A DNA stretch of 64,000 nt from Escherichia coli (GTDB taxonomy: Bacteria; Pseudomonadota; Gammaproteobacteria; Enterobacterales; Enterobacteriaceae), in assembly GCF_003991155.1 (NCBI RefSeq), contig NZ_CP031293.1; one strand, written 5' to 3'. Below are positions 3,529-49,341 of this stretch, one piece after another (the first letter of the stretch is position 1; every line of letters starts with the position of its first letter). Both the position numbers and the translations under genes were made by a program. Below the pieces are notes generated by a model. It saw nothing but the letters and a program-made list of their open reading frames with translations, was not told the DNA's origin and made no database searches.

Positions 3529-3577
3529 TCTCCTAATTATCAGGAATCACCTCACGTAGCGGTCGGATGCAGTAGAA

Positions 3578-3677
3578 AAATTGGTGGTCATTCTGGTGGT
3601 CTTGACAATCTCGATTTTTTGTTTTAGCTTACCAATCAGCCAGTTAATGGCTACGGCGATCCCAGTCAGAGGAGCCC
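3578..3677 (+). repeat. att-like repeat copy A (about 70 bp of island arm plus the last ~17 nt of tRNA-Asn)
   Basis: ttggtggtcattctggtggtcttgacaatctcgattttttgttttagcttaccaatcagccagttaatggctacggcgatcccagtcagaggagcc; the 3' end matches the tRNA-Asn acceptor/T-arm end (cagtcagaggagcc). Confidence 0.75.
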
Positions 3678-3683
3678 AATTTC

Positions 3684-13992: not shown

Positions 13993-15244
<1,252 letters not shown>

Positions 15245-16717: not shown

Positions 16718-16841
16718 CTAATACCAAAATAACTCTATGATTAAAAAGGCTGATATATATGCTGGAAGTAGACAGACTACCGGAAACAGTACGACGGTGA
16801 CAGGGTGAACCAAAGGGTTAGGCGCATTTTAAAAAGGTGGT

Positions 16842-16928
16842 CATTCTGGTGGTCTTGACAAACTCGATTTTTTGTTTTAGCTTATCAATCAGCCTGTTAA
16901 AGGCTAAGGCGATCCCAGTCAGAGGAGC
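16842..16928 (+). repeat. att-like repeat copy B (island right end next to yeeJ)
   Basis: aaaaaggtggtcattctggtggtcttgacaaactcgattttttgttttagcttatcaatcagcctgttaaaggctaaggcgatcccagtcagaggagc; sits where asnT lies in recalled K-12 order (about 250 bp upstream of yeeJ). Confidence 0.75.
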
Positions 16929-17168
16929 AAAATTCTAAAAATTCGCTTTTTTAGCGCAATATCACTGACCTTAGTTGAGCATTGCTTTTTAATGGATAGC
17001 GGGTTTTTGACATCTTAAGCGCCCTCGACCTTTATGGTTGAGGGCGTTTTGCTATGAACGCCATCACCATTTTCCCCTCGATTATAAAACTTGAGTAATT
17101 CAGTAGTCTCCCCTCTTGCAACTCACACCCAAAACTGCTTAACGAAAAGTTATTAATTTTCAATCATA

Positions 17169-30781: not shown

Positions 30782-31238
30782 TTATATTTTAAAGAAATCT
30801 GTCTTTATGGCAGATTTCTTTAATCTCATATAATTCTTATAAAGAATATAATATCCAGCTCGTCATATTGATTATAAAACCCACGCTCCCAGAGAAATAA
30901 TATTTATTAAAATTCCAGGCCTTCTTTTTCTGATTACAGAAGGCAAAGTGGCAATTACGTATAGTTTCCCGATAAAGACGTGACAGCAACATCCCGCATA
31001 AGGCATTTTTCTCTTTATCTTTGTACGGTGCTTCATGGAACAGAGTTTTTGACCTTGCGAATCGTGATGTCTGTTGGGGGGCAATTTGCTCACTGAAGCG
31101 TGAGACTCGATTAAGCACACGAAACACAGAAATCAAAAAACCCGGTCACTTTTTTACAAGGTAACCGGGTAAAAATGATTTTATTTTTTAACTGTCTTGA
31201 GACTCATAGAGATGTCTCAAAACTAAAATTTGGCTCCT

Positions 31239-31338
31239 CTGACTGGGATCGCCGTAGCCTTTAACAGGCTGATTGATAAGCTAAAACAAAAAATCGAGTT
31301 TGTCAAGACCACCAGACTGACCACCATTTTTATTAGCG
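31239..31338 (-). repeat. att-like repeat copy C (tRNA-Asn 3' fragment plus island arm) bounding the defence-like cassette
   Basis: Minus-strand reading: tggtggtcagtctggtggtcttgacaaactcgattttttgttttagcttatcaatcagcctgttaaaggctacggcgatcccagtcagaggagccaaa. The adjacent 31196-31238 matches the hairpin downstream of the tRNA at 6085-6120. Confidence 0.75.
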
Positions 31339-31496
31339 TATATTTTCGCTATGGGCATACTGTCTATTCATTTAACACATGCACGTCTTATTAGAGCGAA
31401 AAGTGTACATTTCAAAAATGCTTTAATAGGATTTCTAGCTATGATGCTAAAGTATCACTACTTTTATGGATATAAACTAGACAGGAATGATGTGTT

Positions 31497-32414
31497 ATGA
31501 AGTCCAGATTTGGACCAAATGGGGTGCATTTATTCGACCGAAATACAGGTCTGAACGTCCTCCTGGAGGAGTTACGCCCAAAGGAATCTGTTTGGTCCAT
31601 TTCTCCACGCCAGGTCTCGATTGCACTTACCAATCTTTGTGACCTTCGCTGCGCACATTGTTTTGCGCCCAAGCATAAGGCATTGCTACATACTGACCAA
31701 GTGCTTACTTGGTTAAAAGAACTGGATACTGAAGGATGCCTCGGTATCGGATTTGGTGGTGGAGAACCAACACTGCATCCTGATTTCGTCGAAATATGTA
31801 AACGGGCTGCTGGGGAAACTCATCTTGCAGTCACATTTACGACTCATGGTCACCGTCTGACCCAGCCATTGGTTAAAAAACTCAAAGGCTCGATCCACTT
31901 TGCGCGCATTAGCGTTGACGGGATAGGTCATACCTACGAAGAACAACGTGGAAGGCAGTTTTCAAGTTTACTCAGAGGCATTGAGTCGATCGCGAAATTG
32001 TCGTCTTTTGGGATCAATGTCGTGATAAACGAGCGTACGATTTTTGAGCTTGACGCAGTGGCTGAGCTGGCGCAACAGTTTGGTGCTAGTGAATTGCTGT
32101 TGTTGCCTCAGCAAGCAACTAATGCAGTCGCAAGTATGGACGAATTGGTCGGCCGAGAGCTTCAAAACTGGGTCTCTAGCTATAGAGGAAAGGTTCGACT
32201 TGCAGTAAGTGAGGTGGGAGCGTCAGGGCTCCCCATATGTGACCCTCTTCCTAATGAAACAGGCCTTCAAGCCTACGCGCATATAGACGCTTCCGGGATA
32301 TTGCGCACGAGTTCTTATTCAACCACAGGTATGGATATTGAAGAAACTGGTGTTATGTCCGCGCTTAAACGGCTTAGAAATACCTTAGAGATTAAACAAG
32401 GGACACAATCATGA
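31497..32414 (+). CDS. Radical SAM enzyme (single 4Fe-4S cluster type, no SPASM extension)
   Basis: 305-aa ORF; CDLRCAHCF (CxxxCxxC, nt 31635-31658), GFGGGEPTLHP (GGEP SAM-binding motif), ARISVDG; stop overlaps the next start (ATGA at 32411-32414). Confidence 0.8.
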   Translation: MKSRFGPNGVHLFDRNTGLNVLLEELRPKESVWSISPRQVSIALTNLCDLRCAHCFAPKHKALLHTDQVLTWLKELDTEGCLGIGFGGGEPTLHPDFVEICKRAAGETHLAVTFTTHGHRLTQPLVKKLKGSIHFARISVDGIGHTYEEQRGRQFSSLLRGIESIAKLSSFGINVVINERTIFELDAVAELAQQFGASELLLLPQQATNAVASMDELVGRELQNWVSSYRGKVRLAVSEVGASGLPICDPLPNETGLQAYAHIDASGILRTSSYSTTGMDIEETGVMSALKRLRNTLEIKQGTQS

Positions 32415-32818
32415 AAATTTGGAACGGATACGGATCTGAGCATTCGATGAACTTAGTTCTCATCGGAAAATTCAAGCAAGAGCAAGATGCAGTGAAGGTC
32501 GAGAAGGATATTAAAACGCTCAGTACTCAGGCTGAGAAAGATGAATGTTACTCGATCCCTTTTGATGAGCCAGAGAATCAACGGTTTTCATATGAAATGC
32601 TCTCATTACTATGCAGCCTAAAACTCCACACTTTAGGACCAACCGATCTTGGTCAATTGGTGTCAGATCATCATCTAGATCGCGAAGGCGATAGAATAAC
32701 AATAACTACTGATGAGGCAGAGGTATCCGCGTTCGTGAAGCTGTTTGTCGAGGCTGGAGCAAAGGTCGAGATTTTCTCAGCGCATGACTATCCGTCCGAT
32801 TCCAGCGATGCCAGTTGA
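32411..32818 (+). CDS. Hypothetical 135-aa protein, translationally coupled between the radical SAM and NTPase genes
   Basis: Start overlaps the radical SAM stop; its own stop TGA overlaps the TTG at 32815. No recognisable motifs. Confidence 0.6.
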   Translation: MKIWNGYGSEHSMNLVLIGKFKQEQDAVKVEKDIKTLSTQAEKDECYSIPFDEPENQRFSYEMLSLLCSLKLHTLGPTDLGQLVSDHHLDREGDRITITTDEAEVSAFVKLFVEAGAKVEIFSAHDYPSDSSDAS

Positions 32819-35800
32819 CAGAGGATGCATTGATGCCTGAAGTAAATTGGAAAGTATTCAACGAACTGCCCGGTGCAGCAGATGTGAACTTCGAAAACCT
32901 TTGCCGCGCTCTGGTACGCCGACACTATGGTCGTTTCGGTCGCTTTAAGCAACTCGCAAATCAGCCTGGGGTGGAGTTTCACCTCGAGCTGACGGAGCCT
33001 TGTGATCTCGGTGCGCCACCAGGTTGGATTGGTTGGCAATGCAAGTGGTATGAACTGGTGAATGGACAAGATTTGGGAGCCTCCCGCCGCAACAAGATCA
33101 TCGAAGGTATCGAAAAGACGCGTAAGCATGTCCCTGGAGTGACCAATTGGAAGCTTTGGACTCATCACACGTTAACAAAAGGTGATCAAGAGTGGTTTTT
33201 CGCGCTAGAGCAAGACCGCTTCCCAGAATTGAAGTTAGAACTGCTCACAGCTACGGATATCGAAGATCTTTTGGTCGGACCGGGAGCGCTTTTACGAGAA
33301 ACCTACTTTGGTGAACTGGTTCTAACTCCAGAGCTAATTGCTGAGCAGTATAAGCTTGCAGTGGCCCCATTTAAGAACCGCTACCAGCCAGATGTTCATG
33401 TAGCGGTGGGGGCTGAGGAGAATATATTCAGGCATCTGTGCAGCCAAAACGCATGGGAATCTCTGGAAGAACTCTCAAACGCTTTAAAAAAGAATCATAC
33501 GAGCATTGCTTCGGTTACTGAGCAACTCAAAACTGAGCTCAGGGCTGAAGTTGAATTACTCCTGGCCCGGGTTATTGGGTTGACTGAGTTTATTGATGGC
33601 TTACACGCGGCGCTCGGCAAAGGTGACTTTAACTCTGTATATCAAGCGTTGGTTTCAAATCCGCGTCAGCCGGTACGTTATGACAGGCTACTTTCGAAAT
33701 TGCGTGGAGCGCGCTTTGACGGGGCTCCGTTAACCGCTAATTTGGTTGCAGATATCCACGCGGTTTCGTCAGTTCTCCGCAGTCTGGAGCAATCGATTAG
33801 TGCTCGGGCGGTTGCTGTTCTTGCGGCGGCGGGGGAAGGTAAGTCTGAACTTGCAGTCAAGGTAACACAGCCAGAAGGGGCGTTCCTAGGGGGAATCCTC
33901 CTATTAGGCAAGAATCTTCATTCAGGCCAGGGGCTTGATGATCTCGTATCTGCCTTCAAGATTTCTGGGAGACCAGCAGAAAGTTTTGACCGCCTGATTG
34001 AGGCCGTAGATGCGGCAGGCCAGCGTGCAGGTAAACGCATACCTATTGTTATTGACGGTCTGAATGAGGCGGAAGATCCGAGAAATTGGAAGGATGAATT
34101 ATCCCGAGTGGATGAGCTTCTAAAGAATTTTCCTTATGTCTTGTTAGTTGTCACTCTTCGCAATGAATTCGCCCAGATGTGTCTGCCTGAGGGGTTTCCC
34201 CAAGTTGAACATAATGGGTTTCAGGAAGATCCGAAGACAGCATTTGACAAGTATTTTGAGTACTACAAGATCGATGCTACTGATGCGGATCTACCAGTCG
34301 AACTCTTGCAGCACCCCTTAACACTGAGAATTTTTTGCGAAGTAGCAAATTCTCCTCGTCAGCATATTGTCGGAGTGGAAGCATTGCCCCGTTCGCTTGC
34401 AAGCCTGTTCGAAGCTCACTTTAACAAGGTTGCAGCACGAGTCGCTGAGCTTTCACCGACGATGCATCGCATTTATCAAGATGACGTTCAGGATGCACTA
34501 CTAACGATCGCGGGTCTTCTTTGGGATAACAATGCGAGAAGTGTGGATTTTCAGGCTACACGGATGGCAGTTCGGGATATGGGGTGGGACGACAGTATTA
34601 TTCGTGCACTGGAGTCTGAAGGCATTCTCGTTCGGACTATTTCTCCAGAAGGTAGGCAAGGAGTTGCGTTTGCATACGACCTAATGGCCGGACATATGAT
34701 GGCGCGCAACCTGCTTATGAAGCCTGAACTGGTGCAATGGCTACAAAGCGATGAAGGGAACGCAAAATTTAAATCTCATGGACCTGATTCGCATACCTTC
34801 GCTTATGACGTATTACGGGCTCTGGTTGATCTGTATCCGCAACACTCTGGTAGGCGGCAGCTTTGGCAAGACTTGTCGGATGATATACTCGTTATGAACG
34901 CTCTGCTATTGACGACGCAATCGGATCCAAGATATATCGGGCGGGCTACTGTTGAACGATTTGCTCAAGCTATGCAGGAGTCGAAGCGGTTTGCACAACT
35001 TGCCTTCGAGAGACTACGGAGCACTAGGGCTGCGCTGGCACATCCGTTTGATATGAGCTTTTTGCATGATGTGCTAATGGCTATGTCCAACACTCAGCGC
35101 GATCTTTTTTGGTCAGAGTGGATTCGTCAGAAATCTGAACAAGTTAAAGACGACTTAAAATTCTTGTCGACGAGATGGAAATCGGGTCATCTGGATGAGC
35201 GTGAACTTCGAAGAGTTCGCTGGGTAATGTGGACACTGACGACGACATCCAGAGCTTTGCGGGATATGGCTACCAAAGCCCTGTATGAATTTGCCATCAG
35301 GCGGCCAGAAGAGTTTTTCCGGTTAGCGACGGAGACAATTGTAGTTTCAGACCCATATGTCCCCGAGCGAGTGTTCGCCGCAGCCTACGGTGCAGTCCTG
35401 ACCACTTGGTCGGATATCGATGCGGTAGAGTTACATGATGCGTTGCCACGGTTCGCTCGTGAGATTTACCAAACCATGTTTGCACCTGGCGCTACAGCCC
35501 CTACCTGGCATGCATTACATCAGCAGTACTGTTTGGGAATCATTGCCATTGCGAGGATGGTCGATCCAAATTGTTTTTCAGAGGACGAAGCTGTTTATCT
35601 TCTTCCGCCATTTAGCCATCTGCCTAACGTATTTGAAAGCATTCAACCGTACGATCCAGAGATGATTGGGCGAGCGGAGAGCGCAGCGATTCAAATGGAC
35701 TTTGGTAACTATACGATTGGTGGACTTATTCCAGACAGAGCGAACTACGATGACAGTAATCCGGAGTACCAACAGGTGTTGCAGGCCATTGTTTCTCGAA

Positions 35801-36891
35801 TGCTGATGCTTGGTTATGACCCTGAGCAGTTTGAAGCTGTTGATCGGCAAATGTACTCCGGTTCTCGTATGGGAGATGACAAGCACAAAATCGATCGATA
35901 TGGCAAAAAGTACGGCTGGATAGCTTACTTCGAGATGTGGGGGATACGATACGCGCAGGGCCTCCTTTCCGAAGAACGCAGTGCTCGCCCATCAGATGCT
36001 GATATCGATCCAACGTTTCCGCAAAAAGTAGAGAGTATTAGTTTGTCACTCCCAGTCTTATTTAACGATCCGTCTGTGGATGATGGTGACTGGATCGTGG
36101 GAGGCCCGCTACCTGACTACCGTAGCATCCTTGAGATTACGGAGGTTGATGGTCTGACGGGGCCATGGATCCTACTTGACGGTTTTGTTGAGCAAAATGC
36201 TACCTCGGATGACCGACAGATTTTCACTTTCCTGCGAGGAGTATTCGTAGATAGCCAAGAAGTTGACAATCTATGTAGGTTGTTCATTGATCTTGAATAT
36301 CCTGGCAATAGCGCCATCCCTGATGCTCCTGGCTACTATTACACCTATGCGGGTGAGATGCCTTTCCCGACTATTCCGGGGCTGCTAGTCGCTAATGAAC
36401 AAGAGGATGATAGCGATGAAAATTTGGTGTTCGCAGAAAGATGGTCAGGCAATGGCGTTGCGGTAGATATCACAGTGCAGGACTACAACTGGGAGAGCTA
36501 CCATAGCGTGGAGAACCAAAGCAGCGGTGCGAGCCTGCCCTCAAAGCAACTTTGTGAGGCTTTGAATCTCAGATACTGTGCAAACAAATGGGATTTGCAT
36601 GATGCTGCAGGTGTAGCGTCACTTTACCGCAAAATTGACGAAAATGGTTCGGACGTCAGTGGCTCTGTCAGCTATCTACGTCGTGATCTACTTGACCGCT
36701 ATTTGATGCAATCCGGTAAGGTATTGGTATGGCTTATGTGGGGAGAGCGTGGTTTTCATTACCGGTCCAACAAGACACGCAATTTGCACAGGTATTACGT
36801 GAATCACCAACATATTCACAAGCGTATTCATATCCATCAGATAGCTTCGAGTACTAGTAACCCAAATATTGCGGATGGAGTCGCTATATGA
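32815..36891 (+). CDS. NACHT-like STAND NTPase with an N-terminal Mrr-like nuclease-fold domain and a long C-terminal region (NLR/Avs-like)
   Basis: 1358-aa ORF (TTG at 32815 or ATG at 32833). N-terminus FENLCRALVRRHYG...EPCDLGAPPGWIGWQCKWY resembles an Mrr-cat type D...QxK nuclease. Walker A VLAAAGEGKSE (nt 33823-33849, aa ~340); Walker B IPIVIDGLNEAED (aa ~410) then LLVVTLR. About 850 aa of C-terminus without enzymatic motifs. Confidence 0.8.
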   Translation: MTEDALMPEVNWKVFNELPGAADVNFENLCRALVRRHYGRFGRFKQLANQPGVEFHLELTEPCDLGAPPGWIGWQCKWYELVNGQDLGASRRNKIIEGIEKTRKHVPGVTNWKLWTHHTLTKGDQEWFFALEQDRFPELKLELLTATDIEDLLVGPGALLRETYFGELVLTPELIAEQYKLAVAPFKNRYQPDVHVAVGAEENIFRHLCSQNAWESLEELSNALKKNHTSIASVTEQLKTELRAEVELLLARVIGLTEFIDGLHAALGKGDFNSVYQALVSNPRQPVRYDRLLSKLRGARFDGAPLTANLVADIHAVSSVLRSLEQSISARAVAVLAAAGEGKSELAVKVTQPEGAFLGGILLLGKNLHSGQGLDDLVSAFKISGRPAESFDRLIEAVDAAGQRAGKRIPIVIDGLNEAEDPRNWKDELSRVDELLKNFPYVLLVVTLRNEFAQMCLPEGFPQVEHNGFQEDPKTAFDKYFEYYKIDATDADLPVELLQHPLTLRIFCEVANSPRQHIVGVEALPRSLASLFEAHFNKVAARVAELSPTMHRIYQDDVQDALLTIAGLLWDNNARSVDFQATRMAVRDMGWDDSIIRALESEGILVRTISPEGRQGVAFAYDLMAGHMMARNLLMKPELVQWLQSDEGNAKFKSHGPDSHTFAYDVLRALVDLYPQHSGRRQLWQDLSDDILVMNALLLTTQSDPRYIGRATVERFAQAMQESKRFAQLAFERLRSTRAALAHPFDMSFLHDVLMAMSNTQRDLFWSEWIRQKSEQVKDDLKFLSTRWKSGHLDERELRRVRWVMWTLTTTSRALRDMATKALYEFAIRRPEEFFRLATETIVVSDPYVPERVFAAAYGAVLTTWSDIDAVELHDALPRFAREIYQTMFAPGATAPTWHALHQQYCLGIIAIARMVDPNCFSEDEAVYLLPPFSHLPNVFESIQPYDPEMIGRAESAAIQMDFGNYTIGGLIPDRANYDDSNPEYQQVLQAIVSRMLMLGYDPEQFEAVDRQMYSGSRMGDDKHKIDRYGKKYGWIAYFEMWGIRYAQGLLSEERSARPSDADIDPTFPQKVESISLSLPVLFNDPSVDDGDWIVGGPLPDYRSILEITEVDGLTGPWILLDGFVEQNATSDDRQIFTFLRGVFVDSQEVDNLCRLFIDLEYPGNSAIPDAPGYYYTYAGEMPFPTIPGLLVANEQEDDSDENLVFAERWSGNGVAVDITVQDYNWESYHSVENQSSGASLPSKQLCEALNLRYCANKWDLHDAAGVASLYRKIDENGSDVSGSVSYLRRDLLDRYLMQSGKVLVWLMWGERGFHYRSNKTRNLHRYYVNHQHIHKRIHIHQIASSTSNPNIADGVAI

Positions 36892-37052
36892 GTTACGACT
36901 TCAGAAATCTTTCATCCGCAAACTTTGAGGATCTTGTGCGGGATCTTATCGAAAAAGAAGAAGGGTTCGCTTCGAAGCATTCTCTGTGGGGGCTGATAAT
37001 GATATTGATGGCCGACACGCACATGCTGGAGGGAATGTCAGTTTATAGGTAA
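36888..37052 (+). pseudogene. Short ORF resembling an Mrr-like N-terminal fragment (possible remnant of a further gene)
   Basis: 54 codons overlapping the NTPase stop (ATGA): MSYDFRNLSSANFEDLVRDLIEKEEGFASKH...; the FEDLV..L motif echoes the N-terminus of the NTPase protein; followed by ~1 kb with no ORF. Confidence 0.3.
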
Positions 37053-38005
37053 AACCTTATGAAGGGGCGTCGTTTAGTATACTGATGGCTATTATGAAGT
37101 GTGAGTGGTTGTCTAAAGATAAGCTAGCCCTCACACGCTGTATCAAGCGACCTCTTGTTAGCTTACTCCAGCTAGCAAGAGTAAACTTTCCCCACTCATA
37201 GGGCTATGTTTGAAGTCCGAGTCGGAAATTGGGGGGCAGAAGACATAAAAGGTCTCCTTAAGAAGTCTTCTTGTCTGTACAAAAACTCTTATTTTGACAA
37301 AGAGCATTGTAGTTATTAACAGGCTGATTAATAAATTTAAAAATAAGTCGTCAGGAACACCAGATTAGCTACCCAAATTCTCATGCCGTGGAAGCGGAAG
37401 AAAAATACTCCCCTGAATATCTTCATATCGGATATACATAATAAGCTTGAGGTTGTATATTTGAAGAATTGAGTAGCCAGAGCCTTGTTGACATAAAGCG
37501 ACACGAACAACATGTTACTTAAAATATCACGAGTATATATTCAGACTTGTTTATGTTGCGACATGGATTCTACAGGCAGCTGGCTGAAACAGTGAGTCAG
37601 AAAAATTTACAGGAGCGCCATAGTCATTAATGGATATCCGTAATATGCTGATGCAAAAGGGTAAGGAGTTTGCCGGTAATCTGCGGTGTTAGACGACAAT
37701 TACAAAACGACCTTAGGCGTCAATTACCGCTGAAAAAAGTGACAGATCACTTTCTATAAAATGCTGCCGTATGACCGACAGATTTATTCCGCTTTATAGC
37801 CATGACTGTTCGGTGCTCACTTCGCTGCGCTCCGCCTCAGTCCTGCCTAAAAAGCGTTGCAGGTTAGTTTGTATCGGCCTAATGAAAGGCTGTTTTAGCG
37901 AAGCGTAAATGTGACATCTTATCTGGTCTAATCTCTTTGCGATAATTGACGCAAAAGCATGGGCTGTAATTGTCACGCAATACTGCGGCAAGTCTCATGA
38001 TGATG

Positions 38006-38100
38006 CCTCTGACAGGGATCTCCGTAGCCATTAACTGGTCGATTGGTAAGCTAAAACAAAAAAATTGAATTTGTCAAGACAGCCATAATGACTACCATTT
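38006..38100 (-). repeat. att-like repeat copy D (degenerate), internal boundary of the composite island
   Basis: Minus-strand reading: tggtagtcattatggctgtcttgacaaattcaatttttttgttttagcttaccaatcgaccagttaatggctacggagatccctgtcagagg; the tRNA-derived end is truncated and diverged. Confidence 0.65.
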
Positions 38101-38264
38101 TCGTCTCTGCTTTTCCATCCTGAAATTAATGGCTATCATATTCGCAATAGACAACATCATCTTACTTGCACTCAACTATAACTAATGCTGAGTGCAAGAA
38201 ACGGGGATTATATCCCCTATCAAGGACCTGTTGAAATATTAGTCTGGAATTTCGAGGCTGTAAT

Positions 38265-38789
38265 TTAAATTGCTCCATTTGCCTTAGCATCAAGAATGAA
38301 TTTTTCATACTCGCGTTCTGCAACAACAACAGGGACTGTTTTGCGATTATATAATTGCATTAATAACAATGTACGATGCCTTCCATCAGAAACACCAAAT
38401 TCACTGTTAGATGCCTCTGGATATTCAACATACCCTTTTGATATATATTTTTTGATTTTATGCCATCTACGCGGATCAATGCAGAATGCTCCATCTCCTA
38501 ATTTTTTAAGAAAGGCTAGCCCATCGACATATACAATCCTGGTAGGACAATGCCGATAGCGTACAGGAAGGGTAAAGATAATATTTTCAAAAACAGGGAA
38601 AGTAAGACCTGAATCATCTTTAGGTATTGACTCAAAGGAATCAAAAGGATATTTTGTCATGTAATCATTTAGTTTTTCAATATCCATATTGGAAAACCAC
38701 GATACTTCCGGGAGAAATTTTTTATCTCTTTCTCTAATTTCTTTGATCGAATCTCCAAATATATCATCTAACCTCCACCCCTCTTTCAT
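38265..38789 (-). CDS. Hypothetical protein with a DGxHR motif (ParB/Srx-like fold suspected)
   Basis: 174-aa AT-rich ORF; ...EFGVSDGRHRTLLLMQL... resembles the DG(Q/H)HR core of ParB-like nuclease-domain proteins; last gene of the orphan Rhs array. Confidence 0.4.
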   Translation of the reverse strand: MKEGWRLDDIFGDSIKEIRERDKKFLPEVSWFSNMDIEKLNDYMTKYPFDSFESIPKDDSGLTFPVFENIIFTLPVRYRHCPTRIVYVDGLAFLKKLGDGAFCIDPRRWHKIKKYISKGYVEYPEASNSEFGVSDGRHRTLLLMQLYNRKTVPVVVAEREYEKFILDAKANGAI

Positions 38790-38833
38790 TTATGCTCCTA
38801 AAATAATGTGATATTAAAAATTCTGTTAATAAG

Positions 38834-39349
38834 TCAAATTTTATGAATACTAATAAGGGGTTTGCACCACTCAACCGAGAGAATATCTTCCATTTTATAA
38901 AAAACGCCATAATCACTTTGATTATAATGCTCAATTTTATCAGCCATTTGTAATCTAATTTTGTCTTTGTAAATTCTACTTCGGATCAAACTGGCGAAAT
39001 TATATATATCAACCCTCAGATTGATAATATTATTTCTATCTGGGCGTCTTTCATGTAACATATCACGAAAAGAAACAAGTAACGTAATTAATTTTTTAGC
39101 CTCATTATTTTTAATATATCCTTTTTTAAAGATGCATAATATTAATTTTGAAATTAAGCTGATTTTTATTTGTAAATTATAGATAGCATTATCGTTTGTC
39201 AGGCAGGTTATGACTTCAATTACTTCACGTGAGCGAATATAATTGTCCAGTGCTTCCCATTCATCCATTCCTCGATGCATTGAAAGTTCCAATTGCCTTA
39301 AAAAAGCATATAACCCCAATAAGAAGTCGCTATTGCAGTATATTTTCAT
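38834..39349 (-). CDS. Putative immunity protein for Rhs fragment B
   Basis: 171-aa AT-rich ORF overlapping by 4 nt the stop of the Rhs C-terminal fragment. Confidence 0.5.
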   Translation of the reverse strand: MKIYCNSDFLLGLYAFLRQLELSMHRGMDEWEALDNYIRSREVIEVITCLTNDNAIYNLQIKISLISKLILCIFKKGYIKNNEAKKLITLLVSFRDMLHERRPDRNNIINLRVDIYNFASLIRSRIYKDKIRLQMADKIEHYNQSDYGVFYKMEDILSVEWCKPLISIHKI

Positions 39350-40835
39350 GAATCACATCCTTTAATAAAACTCATTATTCGTGACCAAAAAGAGTCTTTT
39401 TTGTATATAGGGTTTTTATCGTTTAATGGTAAAGGATCGTCTGTTGGTATAACGGCTGTATTTCTTGGCCCAACATTTGTTTTAGTAAGTGAATCTTTGG
39501 AAGCATCAAACTCTACATAAGAACCATTCTTCCATGCCCCTGTTTCTGCACCTGCCGTTTTAGGATCTCCAAATGGCTCCACCTCAACGTGTACACCAAC
39601 AGGATTGCCTCTGGCAGGGTTGATAGACCCATCCTTGCTAATTCCATCAATACCCTCTGTTGAAGTATGATGTCTAACTCTAACAGTATCGTCACCAGTT
39701 AACCCTAACGGATCAATAATTTTTAGCGGATTAAATACATATCCATACAGGCAATCCCCACCTCTCAGCCCCATCGGATCAGCACACAGATACTGCCCCG
39801 TATCGCAATCATAATACCTGAATCGGTTATAGTACAGGCCTGACTCAACATCCTCGTACTGCCCCGGAAAACGTAACCGGCATGTGGGCGCATCTTCTTT
39901 ACTGATGCCTTCCTCACGCCCCCAGAGCTGCTGCTTGCCTTTCCAGACTATCAGACCCTCTTCGGTCAGCAGTTCTTGTACGCGGCCAGTTGTGTCTGTT
40001 ACCGCATAATGCAGTTGCCCCTTTTCATAACGCGCAAACGGCGTGAAATCTCCCGGCTCGTATATCCAGCGGATGGCGTTTTCATCTTCCGGTTTGCCGT
40101 CAGCGCCAACCGGAATTTCCGCCGTCAACTGGTCGCCGTTCCAGTGAAAATCCATGCCGCGTTTGTCGCGGCTGGTACAGCGCTTGCTGATGCGCCTGCC
40201 GAACGGGTCATACTTATATTCCCAGCGTTCGCCCTCCGGTGTTTCCAGTCCGGTCAACTGGCTGCGTGCATCCCATTTATAACGCCATTCCAGTGGGCGA
40301 TAACCCCCTTTATCCACCAGTTTCTGTACCAGCCTGCCGTTAACATCATATTTCCAGGTGATGTTGTGCGCATTCACCACCCGGACAAATCTCCCGTCTT
40401 CCCCTTTTCCGGTGTCCGGGTTGATGCGATGCGTCGAGTGCCGCCAGCCTTCATGTTCCCGCGATACCACACGACCATGCTGCTGTTGCTGGTGCGTCTC
40501 GCTTTCCAGTACGTTATTCACCCTGATCTGGCGACGGGTAATGTTCAGGTTTTTATCGTAAGTGAACAGCTCCTCGCACAGCGGAAACTGGCTGGAATCA
40601 CCCGTCCAGGTGGCGTGGCTTATCTGGTCGTTTGCCGTGATGGTGTTGAACATGGAGCCGCGCAGCGAGTCGGCGATTGCGGTGAGGTTATACGCTTTGT
40701 CGTAGCTTCGCTGCGTCGGGAGGTTTCCATGCCGCACAGGTCGTGCTCAAATGTCAGCGGGGCATGGTCCGCTATTCGCCATGACGTAAGATGCCCCATC
40801 AGGTCGCGGGTGAAGCGTTCTGTGATACCCTCAGC
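39346..40835 (-). pseudogene. 5'-truncated Rhs fragment B (last ~350 aa of core plus a distinct C-terminal toxin tip)
   Basis: ORF 39346-40737: ...GLYYNRFRYYDCDTGQYLCADPMGLRGGDCLYGYVFNPLKIIDPLGL then a unique ~120-aa tip. DNA 39690-40835 is homologous to 10150-11340 of the main Rhs gene, with a frame disruption near 40700-40760. Confidence 0.8.
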
Positions 40836-40850
40836 CTGTAATTTTACAGG

Positions 40851-41303
40851 TTAAATGGGGAATTTTTCTTCAATGAGCTTCAAGCCAAGTAATGCCATAT
40901 CATGAATATCTTCATCATGCGATTGAGCCGAAATTTTCAACCCGTTTACCATTCTTTTATCTGGGAAAGACATTGTTAATATAGTACACCAAAGCCTAAC
41001 GCTTTTTATTGTGTTAGGATTTTCGAGTATGTTAACGATATTTATAACAACATCATTAAAATCACACTTATAGAGAAAATCCTCAACAATTTGATATACT
41101 CCAAGACCATCACCCTCACCAAAAGATCGCAAAAATAAAGGTATTGCATCTTTATCGGGATGGGAAAGAAAGTAAATTCGTACCTCATCGTATTTATCTA
41201 TAAGATCCTGAGTAATATCACAATCCGCGGGCATTGGTTGATGTAGTGACAGGAACTCTAATGCTTCTTTTTTATTCATATTCATATATTTAATGATTCC
41301 CAA
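40851..41303 (-). CDS. Putative immunity protein for Rhs fragment A
   Basis: 150-aa ORF immediately 3' of Rhs C-terminal fragment A. Confidence 0.5.
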   Translation of the reverse strand: MGIIKYMNMNKKEALEFLSLHQPMPADCDITQDLIDKYDEVRIYFLSHPDKDAIPLFLRSFGEGDGLGVYQIVEDFLYKCDFNDVVINIVNILENPNTIKSVRLWCTILTMSFPDKRMVNGLKISAQSHDEDIHDMALLGLKLIEEKFPI

Positions 41304-41763
41304 AGTTTTTTATTCTGTCTGGCTAACTCATATAGTTGTTCAGTGATGACCTTTTTATCATAGCCTGCATTTGTTAAGATTTTTCTTAGGTCATCTATAT
41401 CCCTTTTCAAATATTGTTCTTTTGTCAAACCTCGAACAAATGCTCGTCTGAATGTCCAGGTAAGAGCATGTAAATCTTTACGCAGATTTATCGTAATTCC
41501 CTTACATTTTGTTGTGGGGCTTACCGCATCCTGAATGGCATGATGAGGTGTATGAGTTGCATTAAGCCCTGTTTTACCATTCGCATAAATTGAAGAACCA
41601 TATGTACCAACGTATAAATCTTCTCCTGGACCAGCTAACAATCCCAAGGGATCAATCCATACCAGTGGATTTGGAGCGTAATTGTAAAGGTTTACTCCCC
41701 CCGACAGTCCAATCGGATCAGCACACAGATACTGTCCTGTCTCGCAATCATAGTACCGGAACC
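41282..41763 (-). pseudogene. Rhs C-terminal fragment A, truncated at its 5' end by IS3 copy 2
   Basis: ORF 41282-41812 runs into the IS; ...YRFRYYDCETGQYLCADPIGLSGGVNLYNYAPNPLVWIDPLGL then a unique ~130-aa tip. Confidence 0.8.
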
Positions 41764-43013
<1,250 letters not shown>

Positions 43014-43016
43014 CCA

Positions 43017-43385
43017 CTACAATGAGAGCATAAGTACACCTGCCGTCATTTCTGGTACGGCAACGCCCCCCGGTGTATAAGCTGTCCCGTTAATGATGAT
43101 GTCACAGGCGGGTTTCAGGGGGGCGAGGTCGCTTTCGCGCAGTACCGGAGATGTGTTCATCTCCCCGGCATACTCATCTTCCACACACAGCGGTAGCGGC
43201 GGGTTTTCGATAAGTTGGGTTTGCCACTGACCATTTTCGTCCCGTTGCAGCCGGAAGCCCGTTTTCATGGCGATAACGCGGTGACGTTCGCTATGTTTAT
43301 CATCCATCGCATATTCTATCGCTGAAAACGGCGTCAGGTTACGAAATTCCATATTGCACCCCGATCCCGTCTGTACCTGTCGCAA
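43017..43385 (-). CDS. Hypothetical 121-aa protein (possible effector-associated adaptor); last codons now replaced by IS sequence
   Basis: MEFRNLTPFSAIEYAMDDKHSERHRVIAMKTGFRLQRDENGQWQ...; the reading frame runs 5 nt into IS copy 2. Confidence 0.5.
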   Translation of the reverse strand: MRQVQTGSGCNMEFRNLTPFSAIEYAMDDKHSERHRVIAMKTGFRLQRDENGQWQTQLIENPPLPLCVEDEYAGEMNTSPVLRESDLAPLKPACDIIINGTAYTPGGVAVPEMTAGVLMLSL

Positions 43386-43964
43386 AACATAATTCTACAG
43401 ATGGCACAGTATCCCCCTGATACAGGTAAAAACTTATTTCACGGAAACCGGCATAGCAAACTGGATGACACAATACCGGGCAAAACGATAAGTATGGTTA
43501 CTATATGAAACGGAATACTCCCGTTTCGTATTATTTTTTTTGACTGATATCAACGGGACGAATTAACTGACAGGATATTTACTGGAAAGTGTCTGCATAT
43601 TGCTCAATATATTTTTAATGGAAATGTATTCTCCATTAATATTTATGGTGTGATTGTGTTTCCCTGTGTGTCAGCTTCCGCTAAACCCCTTGCTGCAAAT
43701 TACCGATCATTGTATTGTTGCGCCGCGCCTGCAAAATCAGGCGTCGGGATTGGAACCCTGATAAGTGTTACAGGCGACATATAGCGCATTTTGCGTCTTT
43801 TTTATGTCGTGCGTCTGGCTGCATCTCAATGGTGGGCTGGACGGGGGCGTCGCAAGACGCGCCGGTTTCCTGTAACACCGGTAGTTCCAACCCCGTTCAG
43901 TTCACCACCAATGAGATTGGAACCTCTGGTGGTGGAATTACCACCCGTTACAGGAGGCTATCCT

Positions 43965-44426
43965 ATGGTTATCATCCTTTCCCCTGACTGCGACTTACTT
44001 TCCATCCCCTTCAGTGCCACCACGGATTTCACCGATCTGGCCGACTACTGCGATCGCTTCGCTGAAACCCTGATCGAATGCCACGATCCGGCGCTGAAAA
44101 TGGCGCTTTATGGCAGGATCAACGCCAGCCTTGCGCTGCTGCGTCCCTCGTTGGGCGAGCCGATCCCGCTGCACCTGATCGACCGTTTCATTGTGGACAC
44201 GCTTCCCGACGTTTCACCGCGCTTTGAACCCGGCGCAGGGCTGCTCTGTGACTACTGTCTGGCGCTGACGCAGGTATTAAGCGGGCGGTCGCTGCTGCCG
44301 GAAACCGAAACCACACTGACCGGGTTGCTGTGCGAACTGGTCTGGTATTTTGCCGCCGACCTTAAAGCGCCGCAGTGGCTGCGCACCGCTGATGGCTTAC
44401 AGGTTATTGACGGGGGGACGGTATGA
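43965..44426 (+). CDS. Hypothetical protein of the P4-like module
   Basis: ORF 43791-44426; probable start at 43965 (MVIILSPDCDLLS...) preceded by AGGAGG at 43952-43957. Confidence 0.5.
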   Translation: MVIILSPDCDLLSIPFSATTDFTDLADYCDRFAETLIECHDPALKMALYGRINASLALLRPSLGEPIPLHLIDRFIVDTLPDVSPRFEPGAGLLCDYCLALTQVLSGRSLLPETETTLTGLLCELVWYFAADLKAPQWLRTADGLQVIDGGTV

Positions 44427-44677
44427 TGCAACCGGACTGGCATCCCGCCGATATCATGGCAGCACTGCGAAAACGTGGTACGTCGCTGGCAGCGGTTTCC
44501 CGCAAAGCGGGACTGGCGTCCGCCACACTGGCAAACGCGCTGAGCCGCTCCTGGCCGCGTGGCGAAAAACTCATTGCGGATGCGCTGGAAACATCACCGG
44601 AAATTATCTGGCCGTCCAGATATTTCGATGATCAGGGCAACCGTATTGTAAGGCTCATGCGAAAGCAGTGCTCCTGA
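44423..44677 (+). CDS. Ner/Nlp-family small DNA-binding regulator
   Basis: 84 aa: ...WHPADIMAALRKRGTSLAAVSRKAGLASATLANALSRSWPRGEKLIADALETSPEIIWPSRY... Confidence 0.7.
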   Translation: MMQPDWHPADIMAALRKRGTSLAAVSRKAGLASATLANALSRSWPRGEKLIADALETSPEIIWPSRYFDDQGNRIVRLMRKQCS

Positions 44678-44826
44678 TGACAGAAGTGTCAGAAACACGA
44701 TTACAGTAAAATCAGGCTCTCCCGGCTCTCTGCCTGCTTCTGCTGGCGGAGAGCCGGGAGAAGACAAGCGAAGCGCGGCAGGATGCCATCCCGCTGTTGA
44801 TAACAGTCACAACCGGAGTCGTTTTT

Positions 44827-45099
44827 ATGCACATGTTTAATCCACCCCATCCGGGTGACGTCCTTCGCGATTATCTGGACGGCGTGAGCATCACGCAGGC
44901 CGCTTCCCGGCTTCAGGTATCGCGCTCGCGGTTATCCCGTATCCTCAATGGACATGCACCAGTGACGGCTGATATGGCGCTACGTCTGGCGGCGCTGCTG
45001 AATACCCGCGCTGAACTGTGGACGGGGATGCAGTCTGAGTATGGCCTCTGGCAGGCGTCACAAAAACCACGACCCGTTATCCGGTCATTGCGGGGTTAA
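44827..45099 (+). CDS. HigA/VapI-like HTH (XRE-family) protein
   Basis: MHMFNPPHPGDVLRDYLDGVSITQAASRLQVSRSRLSRILNGHAPVTADMALRLAALL...; no partner toxin ORF found. Confidence 0.65.
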   Translation: MHMFNPPHPGDVLRDYLDGVSITQAASRLQVSRSRLSRILNGHAPVTADMALRLAALLNTRAELWTGMQSEYGLWQASQKPRPVIRSLRG

Positions 45100-45864
45100 C
45101 TCAGCATTTTACATTCACAAATACACGATAAAATCAGGGGGAAAACCAATATCCAGAAAAATGAGTTTCCCCTTTCTGCGCCAGAAATAACGGTGTAATC
45201 TCCCTCCTGCATTGTCGCCTTCGGGCACCCTTTGGCTTCATGGTCTGCAAGAAGCCCCTGATTTATCAGGATGACCAGCCCTTACTACCGGTACGACCTC
45301 CGCAATACCGGAACGCGAAAGCGTTTGAGGCTAAGAGTACATACACCCGAACGGCTTCATCGTCATTGCTTAACGGCAACAGTCTTCACCGGCTGAACGG
45401 CTTTTCTTTGCCGGAATTTCCCGACTGCCCCATACCCAGCTGAAAACAGCGCCCTTTACATGACGGGCTGCGGCCTGCATTGCCGTCAGGCTTTGCTGCC
45501 GCGTGACCGTCATTCTGCACCAGAAACGCAACGTTTACCCCCTGCACCAGATGAGGCGTCACTTTGGTCGCGCCAGCGAAAAAGCAAAGTGACGCCGTAC
45601 AACATACCGCCGCAAGCCGCGCCAGTTCTGGCCTGCGTCCTGTTTCCGCCGTCTGACATGCCCTTTGGGGCGCTGTCAGTCCAGAGTAAAGGAGAAAAAG
45701 ATCGATACCGAGGGGGGCACGACGCCCCGGAGATACCCCTGCTTCGTCAGGCAGTCTGTACCGCGTACAGCCTGAAACTCCCTAAACCTCAACAATCAGC
45801 CACTCCGGCGTGAAGGTATCGTTCTGGCGCAGCCAAAAAGCACACGCCGGAGACTGTTTGTTTT

Positions 45865-46767
45865 TTGTTGCAGGGGGTAGTTATGAGCAAATTAAGCAGT
45901 GAAATGAAGGCGCTGGCGAAAAAAGCAGGCGGTAGTTTCAGAACGGTGGACTACCGTATCCATGCCACGAAGCGGTTCAGTCAGCATTTACGCGAACTGA
46001 ATATTCAGATCCAGCGGGTGGAGCAGATCAAAGTTCGCCATATCGAATGCTATATTCAGGAGCGGCTGGAGCAGGATATTGGCCTGCGCACGCTGCAAAA
46101 CGAAATGGCGGCGCTGCGGGCCGTGCTGAGGCTGGCGGGACGCCGGCAGGTGGTGGAGCATCCGCGCCTGACCAATAAGGCGCTGGGGCTGTCAGGTGCT
46201 TCGCGCAACGGCACGCGTCGCGCCATCACGCCGGAACATTATGAAAAAGTGATGGAGAACGCCCGCGCACAGGATGCGGGGCTGGCGGCAGCGGTGGAGA
46301 TCGCGCGACTGATGGGATTACGCTCGCAGGAGGCGGTACAGAGTTCACAGTCGCTGAAAACGTGGCTGAAAGCCATTTCCCGCGGCGAAACCCGGCTGAA
46401 AGTGGTGTTTGGCACCAAAGGCGGGCGTCCGCGTTACACGACGCTCCTGGACGCTGGCGCAGTCAGGAAGGCGGTGGAAAACGCATTACCGATCGCCAGA
46501 CAGCGCAATGGCAGGCTGATCGACAAGCCAGACCTTAAAACGGCGCTGGAGAGCTGGCACAAACAGGCCATTAAGGCGGGGCTGAAAGGGGAATTTTCCC
46601 CGCACTCGCTGCGTTATGCGTGGGCGCAGGACGCGATCCGCCATTATCTGGCGCAGGGATTCAGCGAAAAGGAATCGCTGGCGCTGACGGCGACGGATCT
46701 GGGTCATGGCGACGGTCGCGGCCGCTGGGTGAAACAGGTGTACGGCTACCGCTGGAAGGAGGAATAA
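45865..46767 (+). CDS. Integrase-like protein (putative tyrosine recombinase domain)
   Basis: 300-aa ORF; C-terminal ...FSPHSLRYAWAQDAIRHYLAQG...VYGYRW has an R/H/Y arrangement suggestive of a recombinase catalytic region. Start may be MSKLSSEM (45883). Confidence 0.45.
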   Translation: MLQGVVMSKLSSEMKALAKKAGGSFRTVDYRIHATKRFSQHLRELNIQIQRVEQIKVRHIECYIQERLEQDIGLRTLQNEMAALRAVLRLAGRRQVVEHPRLTNKALGLSGASRNGTRRAITPEHYEKVMENARAQDAGLAAAVEIARLMGLRSQEAVQSSQSLKTWLKAISRGETRLKVVFGTKGGRPRYTTLLDAGAVRKAVENALPIARQRNGRLIDKPDLKTALESWHKQAIKAGLKGEFSPHSLRYAWAQDAIRHYLAQGFSEKESLALTATDLGHGDGRGRWVKQVYGYRWKEE

Positions 46768-46841
46768 CGGCTTTCATGAATGGCGCAAAATAGTACGTTA
46801 CTGCGTAACGACAGCGATTTATCGTACCCTCTGTACCGGAT

Positions 46842-47520
46842 CTGGCGCAGGGGGCGAGCGGGTTTGTATTGTGAAAATATCGTTACAGCATGACGAATAA
46901 ATATCAATAGCTCAGATTTTCCTGCTGAACCAATGTAGCTCGCCGGAATATTATAGTGATTACCCGGTAATCACTCGAAACGATCCCGATTAATAGCTGG
47001 TGTTTCAATCGTTTTACCGATATTACAGGTACAGGGTCGGGAAATTTTAAAATGTAAACTCACCGAGGCATCACATTAATTCTGGCGCAGGATTATATCT
47101 GAATAATTCTCTCTGTGTTTTCCTGCATCCTGTGACATATATTGCATGGTCACAGAATGTCTCATGATTTTATAAAAAATGCTGCGACGGTTTTTGACAT
47201 CATAACCTGCTGCATATAGATTAATAATTTTCGGTGCTTCATGTTATTTTTTTGCGCTCTGTGATCGTTATCTGGTGGTGAAAATACAATCTGGTGCAGA
47301 CTGTCATGGTGCATTTCTGAATAAACTGGTTGCGCCAGAAAGGGAAAGGGCCATAAAGGTTAAGGGGCGATAAGGGTAACAGCGCCTGACCGGAAAGGGC
47401 CGAAAACCAAAGAGCCAGAAACTGGCGCAGTCCTGAATGTGTGAAGTGGCGAGACGCTGGCGCAGATAACCGATCTTCCGGGGCTGGTGCAGATTATTTC
47501 GTCTCTGTATATCTGGTGCA
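46842..47520. repeat. Iteron-like direct repeats CTGG(C/T)GCAG (at least 7 copies) in a 1.2-kb non-coding region
   Basis: Copies near 46842, 47082, 47291, 47422, 47455, 47483, 47512; short palindromes at 46964-46982 (gtgattacccggtaatcac) and 47129-47155. Confidence 0.6.
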
Positions 47521-47625
47521 GTTATAATATGTATCAGGGAAGGCTGTCCGGTATTTTATGACGCCTCTTTTAGAGTATATTAATTGGTATTTCCGTGAAA
47601 ATATCGCTTATTGATAGTTTTTCAT

Positions 47626-47655
47626 CTTCCGTGATTAACGCGTTAATCACGGAAG
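47626..47655. promoter_or_regulatory. Perfect 30-bp palindrome (operator-like) upstream of the integrase
   Basis: cttccgtgattaacgcgttaatcacggaag; followed by a second inverted repeat acctatcaa(N11)ttgataggt at 47662-47690. Confidence 0.55.
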
Positions 47656-47841
47656 ACTGTTACCTATCAAAAAAAGATATATTGATAGGTAACGGTCAAA
47701 TTTTATTTGGGGCCAAATAATTGTAGATACTTTCCGATTGGTAATAAAAAAGAACAACGGCAATACCTCTCAATACAAAAAAGCAGATCCCGGCCAATCA
47801 GGATCTGCTTTTCCATTTTAATGATTTCAGCTATTTATGAC

Positions 47842-49104
47842 TCAGGCTGCCTTATGCTGCCGCGCATAAATATACGGCGCGACATACCCCTCGCGGCACA
47901 CATCCAGATAATCCGACCACCACTGCATCATGGCCTTTCTGGCCTCCAGATGCTCCGCTTTATGCACATAGGCCGCCCGCACGCTGTTACGCTCCTAGTG
48001 GCTCATTTGCCGTTCCACCGTATCGCGTGACCAGAGATCCGACTCTACCAGGGCGCTACAGGCCATTGCGCGAAGTCCATGTCCGCACACATCGGTTTTC
48101 GTATCATACCCCATCAGGCGCAGCGCCCGGTTGGTTGTGTTTTCGCTCATTGGCTTGTACGGGTTATGGTCGCCGGGGAATACCAGATCCAGATGGCCGG
48201 AAAGCTCCTGTATCTGTTTCAGAATGGCAATCGCCTGGCGGGAGAGTGGCACGATATGCGGACTACGCATTTTTGCGCCACGCCCCGAAAACCGTACTTT
48301 GTCGATGGCCTCGCGGGTGGCGGGGATGGTCCAGATTTTGTGCCTGAAATCAATCTCGCTCCAGCGGGCGAAACGCAGTTCGCTGGAACGGATGAACAGG
48401 TGCAGTGTCAGCACCACCGCCAGCCGGGTTAACTCCCGGCCCTGCCGGTAATCGCCAATACGATCGAGCAATTCAGGCAACCGCTCCAGCGGTAAAGCGG
48501 GATAGTGATTCTTGACGGGAGAGGCGACTACACCATCCAGATGCTGCGCCGGGTTGCTTTCGGTCAGTCCCTGCTGAACGGCATAGCGCATGATGTTGCT
48601 GAGTTGCTGCCGGGTTCGGGACGCGACTTCCAGAAAGCCCTTATCCTCAATAACCCGCAGCAAAGCCGTGAAATCCTGCGTTTTAAGCGCAGCAACGGGC
48701 AGATGACCAATCGCCGGGAAGATATGGTTTTCCATACTGGCGAGAATACGGGCGGCATAATCAGCCGACCATTTTTTGTTGGTTTTGTGCCAGGCCAGCG
48801 CCACCGCCTTAAAGCACTTTTCAGGGGAGCAGGCGGATTTCTCTGCCATACGCTGTTGCGCCGGGTTGATATTCTGCGCCAGTAGCTTGCGGATACCGTC
48901 GCGCTGTTGCCTGGCTTCTGCCAATGAGACAAGCGGATATGCGCCAAGACTGACTCTGGATTCTTTTCCGTTGAAACGATATTTGAGATACCAGATGCGT
49001 GAACCACCCGGATTGACGAGCAGATACAGACCCTGAGAGTCGGAGAGTTTTACCGGACGGGAAGAAGACTTTAACTTGCGGATTTTAGAATCGTTTAAAG
49101 ACAT
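47842..49104 (-). pseudogene. P4-type integrase with an in-frame amber codon before the catalytic tyrosine
   Basis: ORF 47995-49206 ends ...VERQMSH at TAG (47995-47997); the same frame continues ERNSVRAAYVHKAEHLEARKAMMQWWSDYLD... to 47842. The integrase at 6227-7513 has CAG (Q) at the equivalent codon. Adjacent to tRNA-Asn. Confidence 0.8.
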
Positions 49105-49265
49105 TTGGGGGTCACTCCAGAATCGAACCAAACTGACCCCAGATCTGACCACCAAATTATCCCGATGCGGAGAGAAAATTAGATACGCACCGGGAAGGAT
49201 TTTCACGCTAACTTACTGAATCGTAAACAAATAGAGACGCATAGATAAGCATGAAAACTTGAATT

Positions 49266-49341
49266 TGGCTCCTCTGACTGGACTCGAACCAGTGACATAC
49301 GGATTAACAGTCCGCCGTTCTACCGACTGAACTACAGAGGA
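49266..49341 (-). tRNA. asnW: tRNA-Asn (GTT)
   Basis: Reverse complement is identical to the tRNA-Asn at 6009-6084; lies between the integrase and yeeO. Gene symbol from recalled K-12 synteny. Confidence 0.9.

Follow-up and report, generated by a model that had tools for sequence, protein, structure and literature searches.

A window of 64,000 nucleotides (nt) from Escherichia coli, the whole stretch of DNA analyzed here (NCBI RefSeq assembly GCF_003991155.1, contig NZ_CP031293.1), carries the three-gene operon avap1-avap2-avs2 (Table 1), whose last gene very probably specifies a KpAvs2-subtype member of the Avs2 family of antiviral STAND receptors. This is a known system, characterized by experiment as the KpAvs2 operon of Klebsiella pneumoniae (Béchon et al., Nat Commun 2024, PMC11564622). 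The open reading frame (ORF) of avs2 runs unbroken over 32815..36891 on the plus strand and holds 1358 codons if a TTG at 32815 is counted, as the initial annotation had done. This start lies 18 nt too far 5', since a Shine-Dalgarno sequence (GAGGA) is found 7 nt 5' of an ATG at 32833, the RefSeq annotation begins the gene at this ATG, homologue alignments begin at residue 1 of the protein it initiates, and the published numbering of KpAvs2 (K71, K337, length 1352) is compatible with this start only. Translation therefore almost certainly begins at ATG 32833, giving a protein of 1352 residues, and residue numbers throughout are counted from there.

The large ORF that the initial annotation had singled out proved to be real and uninterrupted. 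The identical protein is recorded on 342 contigs, homologues that match over the whole length at 75-79% identity come from genera that include Pseudomonas, Burkholderia, Xanthomonas and Halomonas, and the N-terminal 320 residues are common to 302 clusters (built at 50% identity) at E<=0.001, so that a chance ORF is not a tenable explanation. RefSeq names the three products 'radical SAM protein', 'DUF6375 family protein', and 'hypothetical protein' or 'NACHT domain-containing protein'.

The avap1 and avap2 genes lie directly upstream of avs2. The avap1 stop and avap2 start codons share the sequence ATGA, with 14 nt separating the avap2 stop from the avs2 ATG; judged by these junctions, the operon is translationally coupled. 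A scan for promoters and terminators gave no excess over shuffled sequence, and therefore no promoter is claimed. In Avap1, the radical-SAM motif (CDLRCAHC) begins at residue 48, and the best NCBIfam matches are generic SPASM/MoaA-type radical-SAM models, all under their cut-offs. The radical-SAM core with CxxxCxxC is shared with the prokaryotic viperins (pVip), and the PADLOC pVip model matches Avap1 in part (E 5e-20, aa 40-182). A viperin identity was nevertheless rejected, as the protein scores 58.5 bits against NF038283, whose cut-off is 180, and no viperin-type nucleotides were found for the Klebsiella system (PMC11564622).

Table 1. Features of the avap1-avap2-avs2 locus and its surroundings, in window coordinates
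Feature	Position	Strand	Remarks
avap1	31497..32414	+	radical-SAM protein, 305 aa; Pfam Radical_SAM (PF04055) E 3.9e-15; CxxxCxxC C48-C55
avap2	32411..32818	+	DUF6375 (PF19902) protein, 135 aa; Pfam E 9.8e-60, end-to-end match
avs2	32833..36891	+	1352-aa Avs2 (AVAST type 2), very probably KpAvs2 type; PADLOC Avs2 PDLC02164, PDB 9o4e, K. pneumoniae 1352-aa proteins 96% identical
Mrr-like PD-(D/E)xK nuclease effector	32833..33312	+	aa 1-160; proposed catalytic residues E21, E48, Q69-C-K71
FENLC motif	32890-32904	+	aa 20-24
Proposed catalytic codon E21	32893-32895	+
Proposed catalytic codon E48	32974-32976	+
Proposed catalytic codons Q69-C-K71	33037-33045	+
Alpha-helical bundle ('helical extension')	33313..33792	+	aa 161-320, between nuclease and NTPase; predicted Avap2 docking site in KpAvs2
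STAND P-loop NTPase core	33793..34392	+	~aa 321-520; boundaries approximate
Walker A GEGKS	33832-33846	+	aa 334-338, K337
Walker B VIDGLNE	34048-34068	+	aa 406-412, D408
TLR	34153-34161	+	aa 441-443; sensor-1-like R443 at 34159-34161
Alpha-helical TPR-like domain	34393..35961	+	~aa 521-1043; aligns to EcAvs2 9o4e to residue 989, again 1099-1159; boundaries approximate
C-terminal sensor, beta-rich	35962..36888	+	~aa 1044-1352; profile 943-1321 vs EcAvs2 1058-1448, E 4e-27
Decayed 5' remnant of fourth gene	36888..37265	+	PDC-S73-type Mrr_cat + nSTAND3 NTPase; frameshifted, not functional here
att-like repeat, left islet boundary	31224..31330	+	reverse complement of tRNA-Asn 3' end + ~85-nt conserved arm
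att-like repeat, right islet boundary	38006..38101	+	84% identical second copy
Further att-like copies	3577-3682 and 16831-16937	-
Rhs C-terminal toxin and immunity fragments	38265-41812	-
IS3-family element	41800-43013
P4-like C4 and isrK RNAs	43725-43912
Integrase-domain gene	45865-46767

Domain anatomy of the receptor

A Pfam scan of residues 1-1000 returned a NACHT match at E 0.88 alone and no Mrr_cat, and that of residues 901-1352 found nothing; sequence-level Pfam was thus uninformative, and fold and profile searches were needed. An AlphaFold2 model of residues 1-330, built from 63 aligned sequences, reached a predicted local distance difference test score (pLDDT) of 91.8 and showed an alpha-beta-beta-beta-alpha-beta core (H16-35, E36-40, E49-53, E64-71, H83-99, E105-110). 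Its closest fold match was the nuclease of EcAvs4 (PDB 8dgf), followed by MspJI, FokI, LlaBIII, EcoT38I and AF1548; AspBHI was matched as well. The nuclease head that the initial annotation had proposed, from an acidic residue followed by QxK on the next strand, is therefore borne out as a restriction-endonuclease fold, with E48 as the acidic residue on beta-2 and Q69-x-K71 on beta-3. Both E48 and Q69 are invariant in all 63 homologues and E21 is near-invariant; position 71 (window 33043-33045), a lysine in this protein, is occupied by lysine in 33 of the 63 and by arginine in the other 30. The PADLOC Avs4 model matches the first 118 residues weakly (E 5.7e-5). Cleavage of DNA by this domain would be expected by analogy with KpAvs2, where infection leaves a DNA smear and the K71A substitution abolishes defence.

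Between the nuclease and the NTPase lies an alpha-helical bundle, with helices at residues 166-323 of the same model. The NTPase itself has a Walker A motif, a Walker B motif with a following acidic residue, and a sensor-1 arginine, and across 14 diverse homologues no variation is seen in the residues G, G, K, D and E of the Walker motifs or in the TLR arginine. A model of residues 304-563 (pLDDT 86.9) had Avs4 as its top hit; the NLRP3 NACHT domain ranked third and had the best TM-score, and NLRP7, NLRP9 and Apaf-1 appeared further down, interleaved with AAA+ proteins. STAND membership is secure. The label 'NACHT-type ATPase' given by the initial annotation is only suggestive, because the Pfam NACHT family (PF05729) matches this protein without significance (E 0.88 and 0.11). 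Among the homologues no family turns up more often, with E<=0.001 reached in three of the 14, and nSTAND1 and AAA_22 match as well. The Walker B sequence DGLNE is one that we take to resemble the NACHT signature DGxDE. The motif sites themselves (FENLC, Q-C-K, GEGKS within 33823-33849, VIDGLNE and TLR) were all found where they had been placed.

The remainder of the protein was compared with EcAvs2 (PDB 9o4e), the only solved relative detectable by sequence. A single-sequence search of the PDB aligned the two at E 2e-36, with the N-terminus and the last 300 residues aligning to nothing. When a family profile built from 63 homologues was compared with 9o4e, the match rose to E 7.4e-93, with profile positions 161-965 aligned to residues 166-989 and 943-1321 to 1058-1448. 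This profile recovered the C-terminal sensor against the PDB and not the effector; residues 1-160 have no counterpart in EcAvs2. The alignment indicates that everything from the helical extension through the C-terminal sensor is Avs2-type, including a TPR-like domain and a beta-rich C-terminal sensor homologous to those of EcAvs2, whose domains are described in bioRxiv 10.64898/2026.04.30.721860. It also agrees with the fold model in placing the P-loop region within a STAND family, as first suggested.

Among close orthologues, identity is lowest in the C-terminal sensor (89.6-95.5%) and highest in the nuclease (97.5-100%). A conserved nuclease joined to a variable sensor is the pattern expected of an immune receptor, and it leaves room for trigger ranges that may be specific to the allele.

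Relation to characterized Avs systems and expected mechanism

The PADLOC Avs2 model PDLC02164 matches residues 2-963 at E 7.5e-116 and five more Avs2 models match as well, as does the NCBIfam Avs2 model NF041813 (E 5e-82, aa 304-937). Members of the same 90% cluster that come from K. pneumoniae share 95.3-96.1% of their residues with the window protein, align without gaps and are likewise 1352 residues long. The tested KpAvs2 of K. pneumoniae S_15PV has the same gene order (radical SAM, DUF6375, and a protein with an Mrr nuclease, a STAND module and a C-terminal sensor), and is collinear with the window protein in its length of 1352 residues, its nuclease lysine K71 and its Walker A lysine K337; the length follows from a published deletion construct that lacks residues 1066-1352 (PMC11564622). 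The present locus differs from it in its host, E. coli, and in its setting, an islet in a tRNA-Asn island array adjoining yeeN, and about 4% of residues differ from the Klebsiella cluster members, most densely in the C-terminal sensor.

In KpAvs2, defence is lost with the substitution K71A, with K337A, and when the C-terminal domain is deleted, and infection leads to non-specific DNA degradation, seen as a DNA smear, with growth arrest and abortive infection (PMC11564622). The small phage protein Ksap1 binds the KpAvs2 C-terminus, the deletion of 1066-1352 having served as the test construct for this binding (PMC11564622), and the known activators comprise many terminases, Ksap1 and Ksap2 (bioRxiv 10.64898/2026.04.30.721860). 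The C-terminal sensor and the abortive-infection trigger that the initial annotation had read into the protein have thus both been shown experimentally for the orthologous KpAvs2 (PMC11564622). Its picture of a single-chain system was correct in that effector, switch and sensor share one protein, and fell short in that the gene belongs to a three-gene operon and KpAvs2 requires a partner. This partner, the DUF6375 protein Avap2, co-immunoprecipitates with KpAvs2 and is required for defence, and AlphaFold-Multimer places it on the helical bundle between nuclease and NTPase (PMC11564622). Avap1 is required against T2 and dispensable against SECphi18; the study found neither modified nucleotides nor an NTP pocket (PMC11564622).

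Two further receptors resemble the window protein in part. EcAvs2, a tetramer-forming sensor of terminase and Ksap1, shares the helical extension, STAND NTPase, TPR-like domain and C-terminal sensor, but differs in having another, uncharacterized N-terminal effector in place of the Mrr-like nuclease, in being a single gene without Avap1 or Avap2, and in its length of 1484 residues, part of which is an additional stretch near residues 990-1058. The majority of Avs2 proteins rely on Mrr-like nucleases that act on double-stranded DNA (bioRxiv 10.64898/2026.04.30.721860). A related Avs2 has been solved by cryo-electron microscopy at 2.3 Å. The EcAvs2 assembly is a C4 tetramer in which each protomer binds one terminase ATPase domain, gripped by the helical extension, TPR domain and C-terminal sensor (bioRxiv 10.64898/2026.04.30.721860). 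EcAvs4 (PDB 8dgf) has a similar Mrr-like nuclease, with weak sequence similarity over the first ~118 residues only, but it carries another sensor family whose trigger is the portal protein.

Domain anatomy, catalytic conservation, operon structure and close orthology were computed here; the mechanism is carried over to this allele from the experiments on KpAvs2 and EcAvs2, which likewise supply trigger binding, oligomerization, DNA degradation and the need for Avap2 (and, against some phages, Avap1). At rest, the receptor would be an inactive monomer with Avap2 constitutively bound at the helical bundle (aa 161-320). During infection, a phage protein would dock where the TPR-like domain and the C-terminal sensor together make a pocket; the triggers known elsewhere are the large terminase subunit and, with certain phages, two small proteins, Ksap1 and Ksap2. 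The ATP-bound STAND module would then oligomerize, as the related EcAvs2, SeAvs3 and EcAvs4 do into tetramers, and thereby cluster the N-terminal Mrr-like nucleases, which would degrade double-stranded DNA non-specifically. Growth would stop before the release of phage progeny, amounting to abortive infection.

The islet, the fourth-gene remnant and the surrounding island

The operon lies on a 6.8-kb islet bracketed by direct repeats at 31224-31330 and 38006-38101. Together with the two further copies in the window, these form a set of four ~106-nt repeats, 84-95% identical, each opening with the 3'-terminal ~16 nt of tRNA-Asn (TGGCTCCTCTGACTGG, in plus orientation) and continuing into the conserved arm of ~85 nt; no Rfam family matched them at the gathering threshold. 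They look like attachment-site (att) remnants left as integrative elements accumulated in tandem at tRNA-Asn. The window is part of the E. coli chromosome, and 25 genomes among 5426 complete ones carry the 5.5-kb locus, in every case chromosomally; in 23 of them it is at least 99% identical. In E. coli EC0585 (NZ_CP195049.1, 2981452-2988961), the matched 5.5-kb segment is split by IS100, an insertion sequence (IS) with the istA/istB genes of the IS21 family, and this may constitute a natural knock-out of the operon.

Immediately 3' of avs2, a 54-residue ORF (MSYDFRNLSSANFEDLVRDL...) overlaps the avs2 stop codon at 36888. By tblastn, it belongs to a remnant split over two frames (36888-37265). 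The intact counterpart is found in E. coli MLI107, where a fourth gene encodes a protein of 762 residues (L002:8009-10297), is translationally coupled to avs2, and matches the PADLOC candidate PDC-S73 (E 5e-146), Pfam nSTAND3 (2e-48) and Mrr_cat. NCBIfam returned nothing for the 54-residue remnant ORF, nor for two small minus-strand ORFs at 38265-39349. One of the small minus-strand ORFs (38265-38789, 174 residues), downstream of the Rhs toxin-immunity pair, contains a DGRHR motif reminiscent of ParB/sulfiredoxin-like domains.

The islet is held within a ~18-kb genomic island (31200-49341) that lies between yeeN and tRNA-Asn (49266-49341, minus strand). Integrase genes occupy the tRNA-proximal end of this island, where a pseudogenized tyrosine recombinase adjoins tRNA-Asn, and the island also carries a HigA-like antitoxin. 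Two identical Rfam matches to the small RNA isrC (14063-14185 and 41832-41954, plus strand, 145 bits each) were observed in the window; the second falls within the transposase region of the IS3-family element, which makes it likely that each marks a copy of one and the same IS element.

Alternative readings and significance

Several observations weigh against the assignment to a KpAvs2-type receptor. The NF041813 score of 276 bits is far under the curated equivalog cut-off of 1000; Pfam detects neither Mrr_cat in residues 1-1000 nor a significant NACHT domain in this protein; and the alternation of lysine and arginine at position 71 is unusual for a PD-(D/E)xK catalytic lysine. Orthology to the S_15PV protein is drawn from the coinciding length, the positions of K71 and K337 and the identities of the Klebsiella cluster members. 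Finally, of the 309 positions in the sensor, 14-26 are substituted relative to Klebsiella alleles, and a shift in trigger range may follow.

This last point leads to the alternative with the strongest claim, namely that the system works as described and that the trigger range of the E. coli allele differs from that of KpAvs2 (for instance terminase only, or other phage proteins) through divergence of the sensor. No other domain varies as much as the sensor among close orthologues, Ksap1 needs few substitutions to escape KpAvs2 (PMC11564622), and EcAvs2 and KpAvs2 respond differently to Ksap2 (bioRxiv 10.64898/2026.04.30.721860). Overall identity to the Klebsiella alleles is still 95-96%, however, and Avs sensors recognize folds rather than sequences (bioRxiv 10.64898/2026.04.30.721860), so that we regard a shifted trigger range as unlikely, though deserving serious consideration. 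It is less probable that the locus is a decaying relic that no longer provides active defence in this strain, a reading to which we give little credence: the adjoining PDC-S73-type gene is reduced to a 380-nt remnant, the tRNA-proximal integrase of the island is a pseudogene and one of the 25 genomes carries IS100 within the matched segment, but all three ORFs are unbroken, their junctions overlap and no catalytic residue is missing, and the near-identical copies in the 23 genomes come from unrelated sources. Least probable of all, and in our view highly improbable, is that the PD-(D/E)xK-fold domain serves in DNA binding or oligomerization and that toxicity comes from elsewhere, such as Avap1 radical-SAM chemistry. 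The exchange of the motif lysine for arginine across the family, the missing Mrr_cat match, and the need for Avap1 against some phages (PMC11564622) would fit such a role. Against it, K71A abolished KpAvs2 defence and infection degraded DNA, Avap1 was dispensable against SECphi18 with no viperin-type nucleotides found (PMC11564622), E48 and Q69 are invariant, and the closest fold is that of an active nuclease, EcAvs4. A further composite, which we hold to be rather improbable, is that the allele senses differently from KpAvs2, or that the operon descends from an ancestral four-gene module with the PDC-S73-type gene, or that the lysine/arginine split marks two mechanistic subclasses of effector; an ancestral four-gene module, if true, would mean two nuclease-STAND receptors sharing accessory proteins.

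The preferred reading, an Avs2 receptor of the KpAvs2 subtype, means that an NLR-like bacterial immune receptor was correctly called from sequence alone; it adds little that is new, the same operon type having already been tested genetically and biochemically. Some residual value lies in the roles of the radical-SAM protein Avap1 and the DUF6375 protein Avap2, in the carriage of the operon here by a small islet that att-like repeats delimit within a tRNA-Asn island array, and in its coupling, in a different E. coli strain, to a second gene of nuclease-STAND type (PDC-S73).

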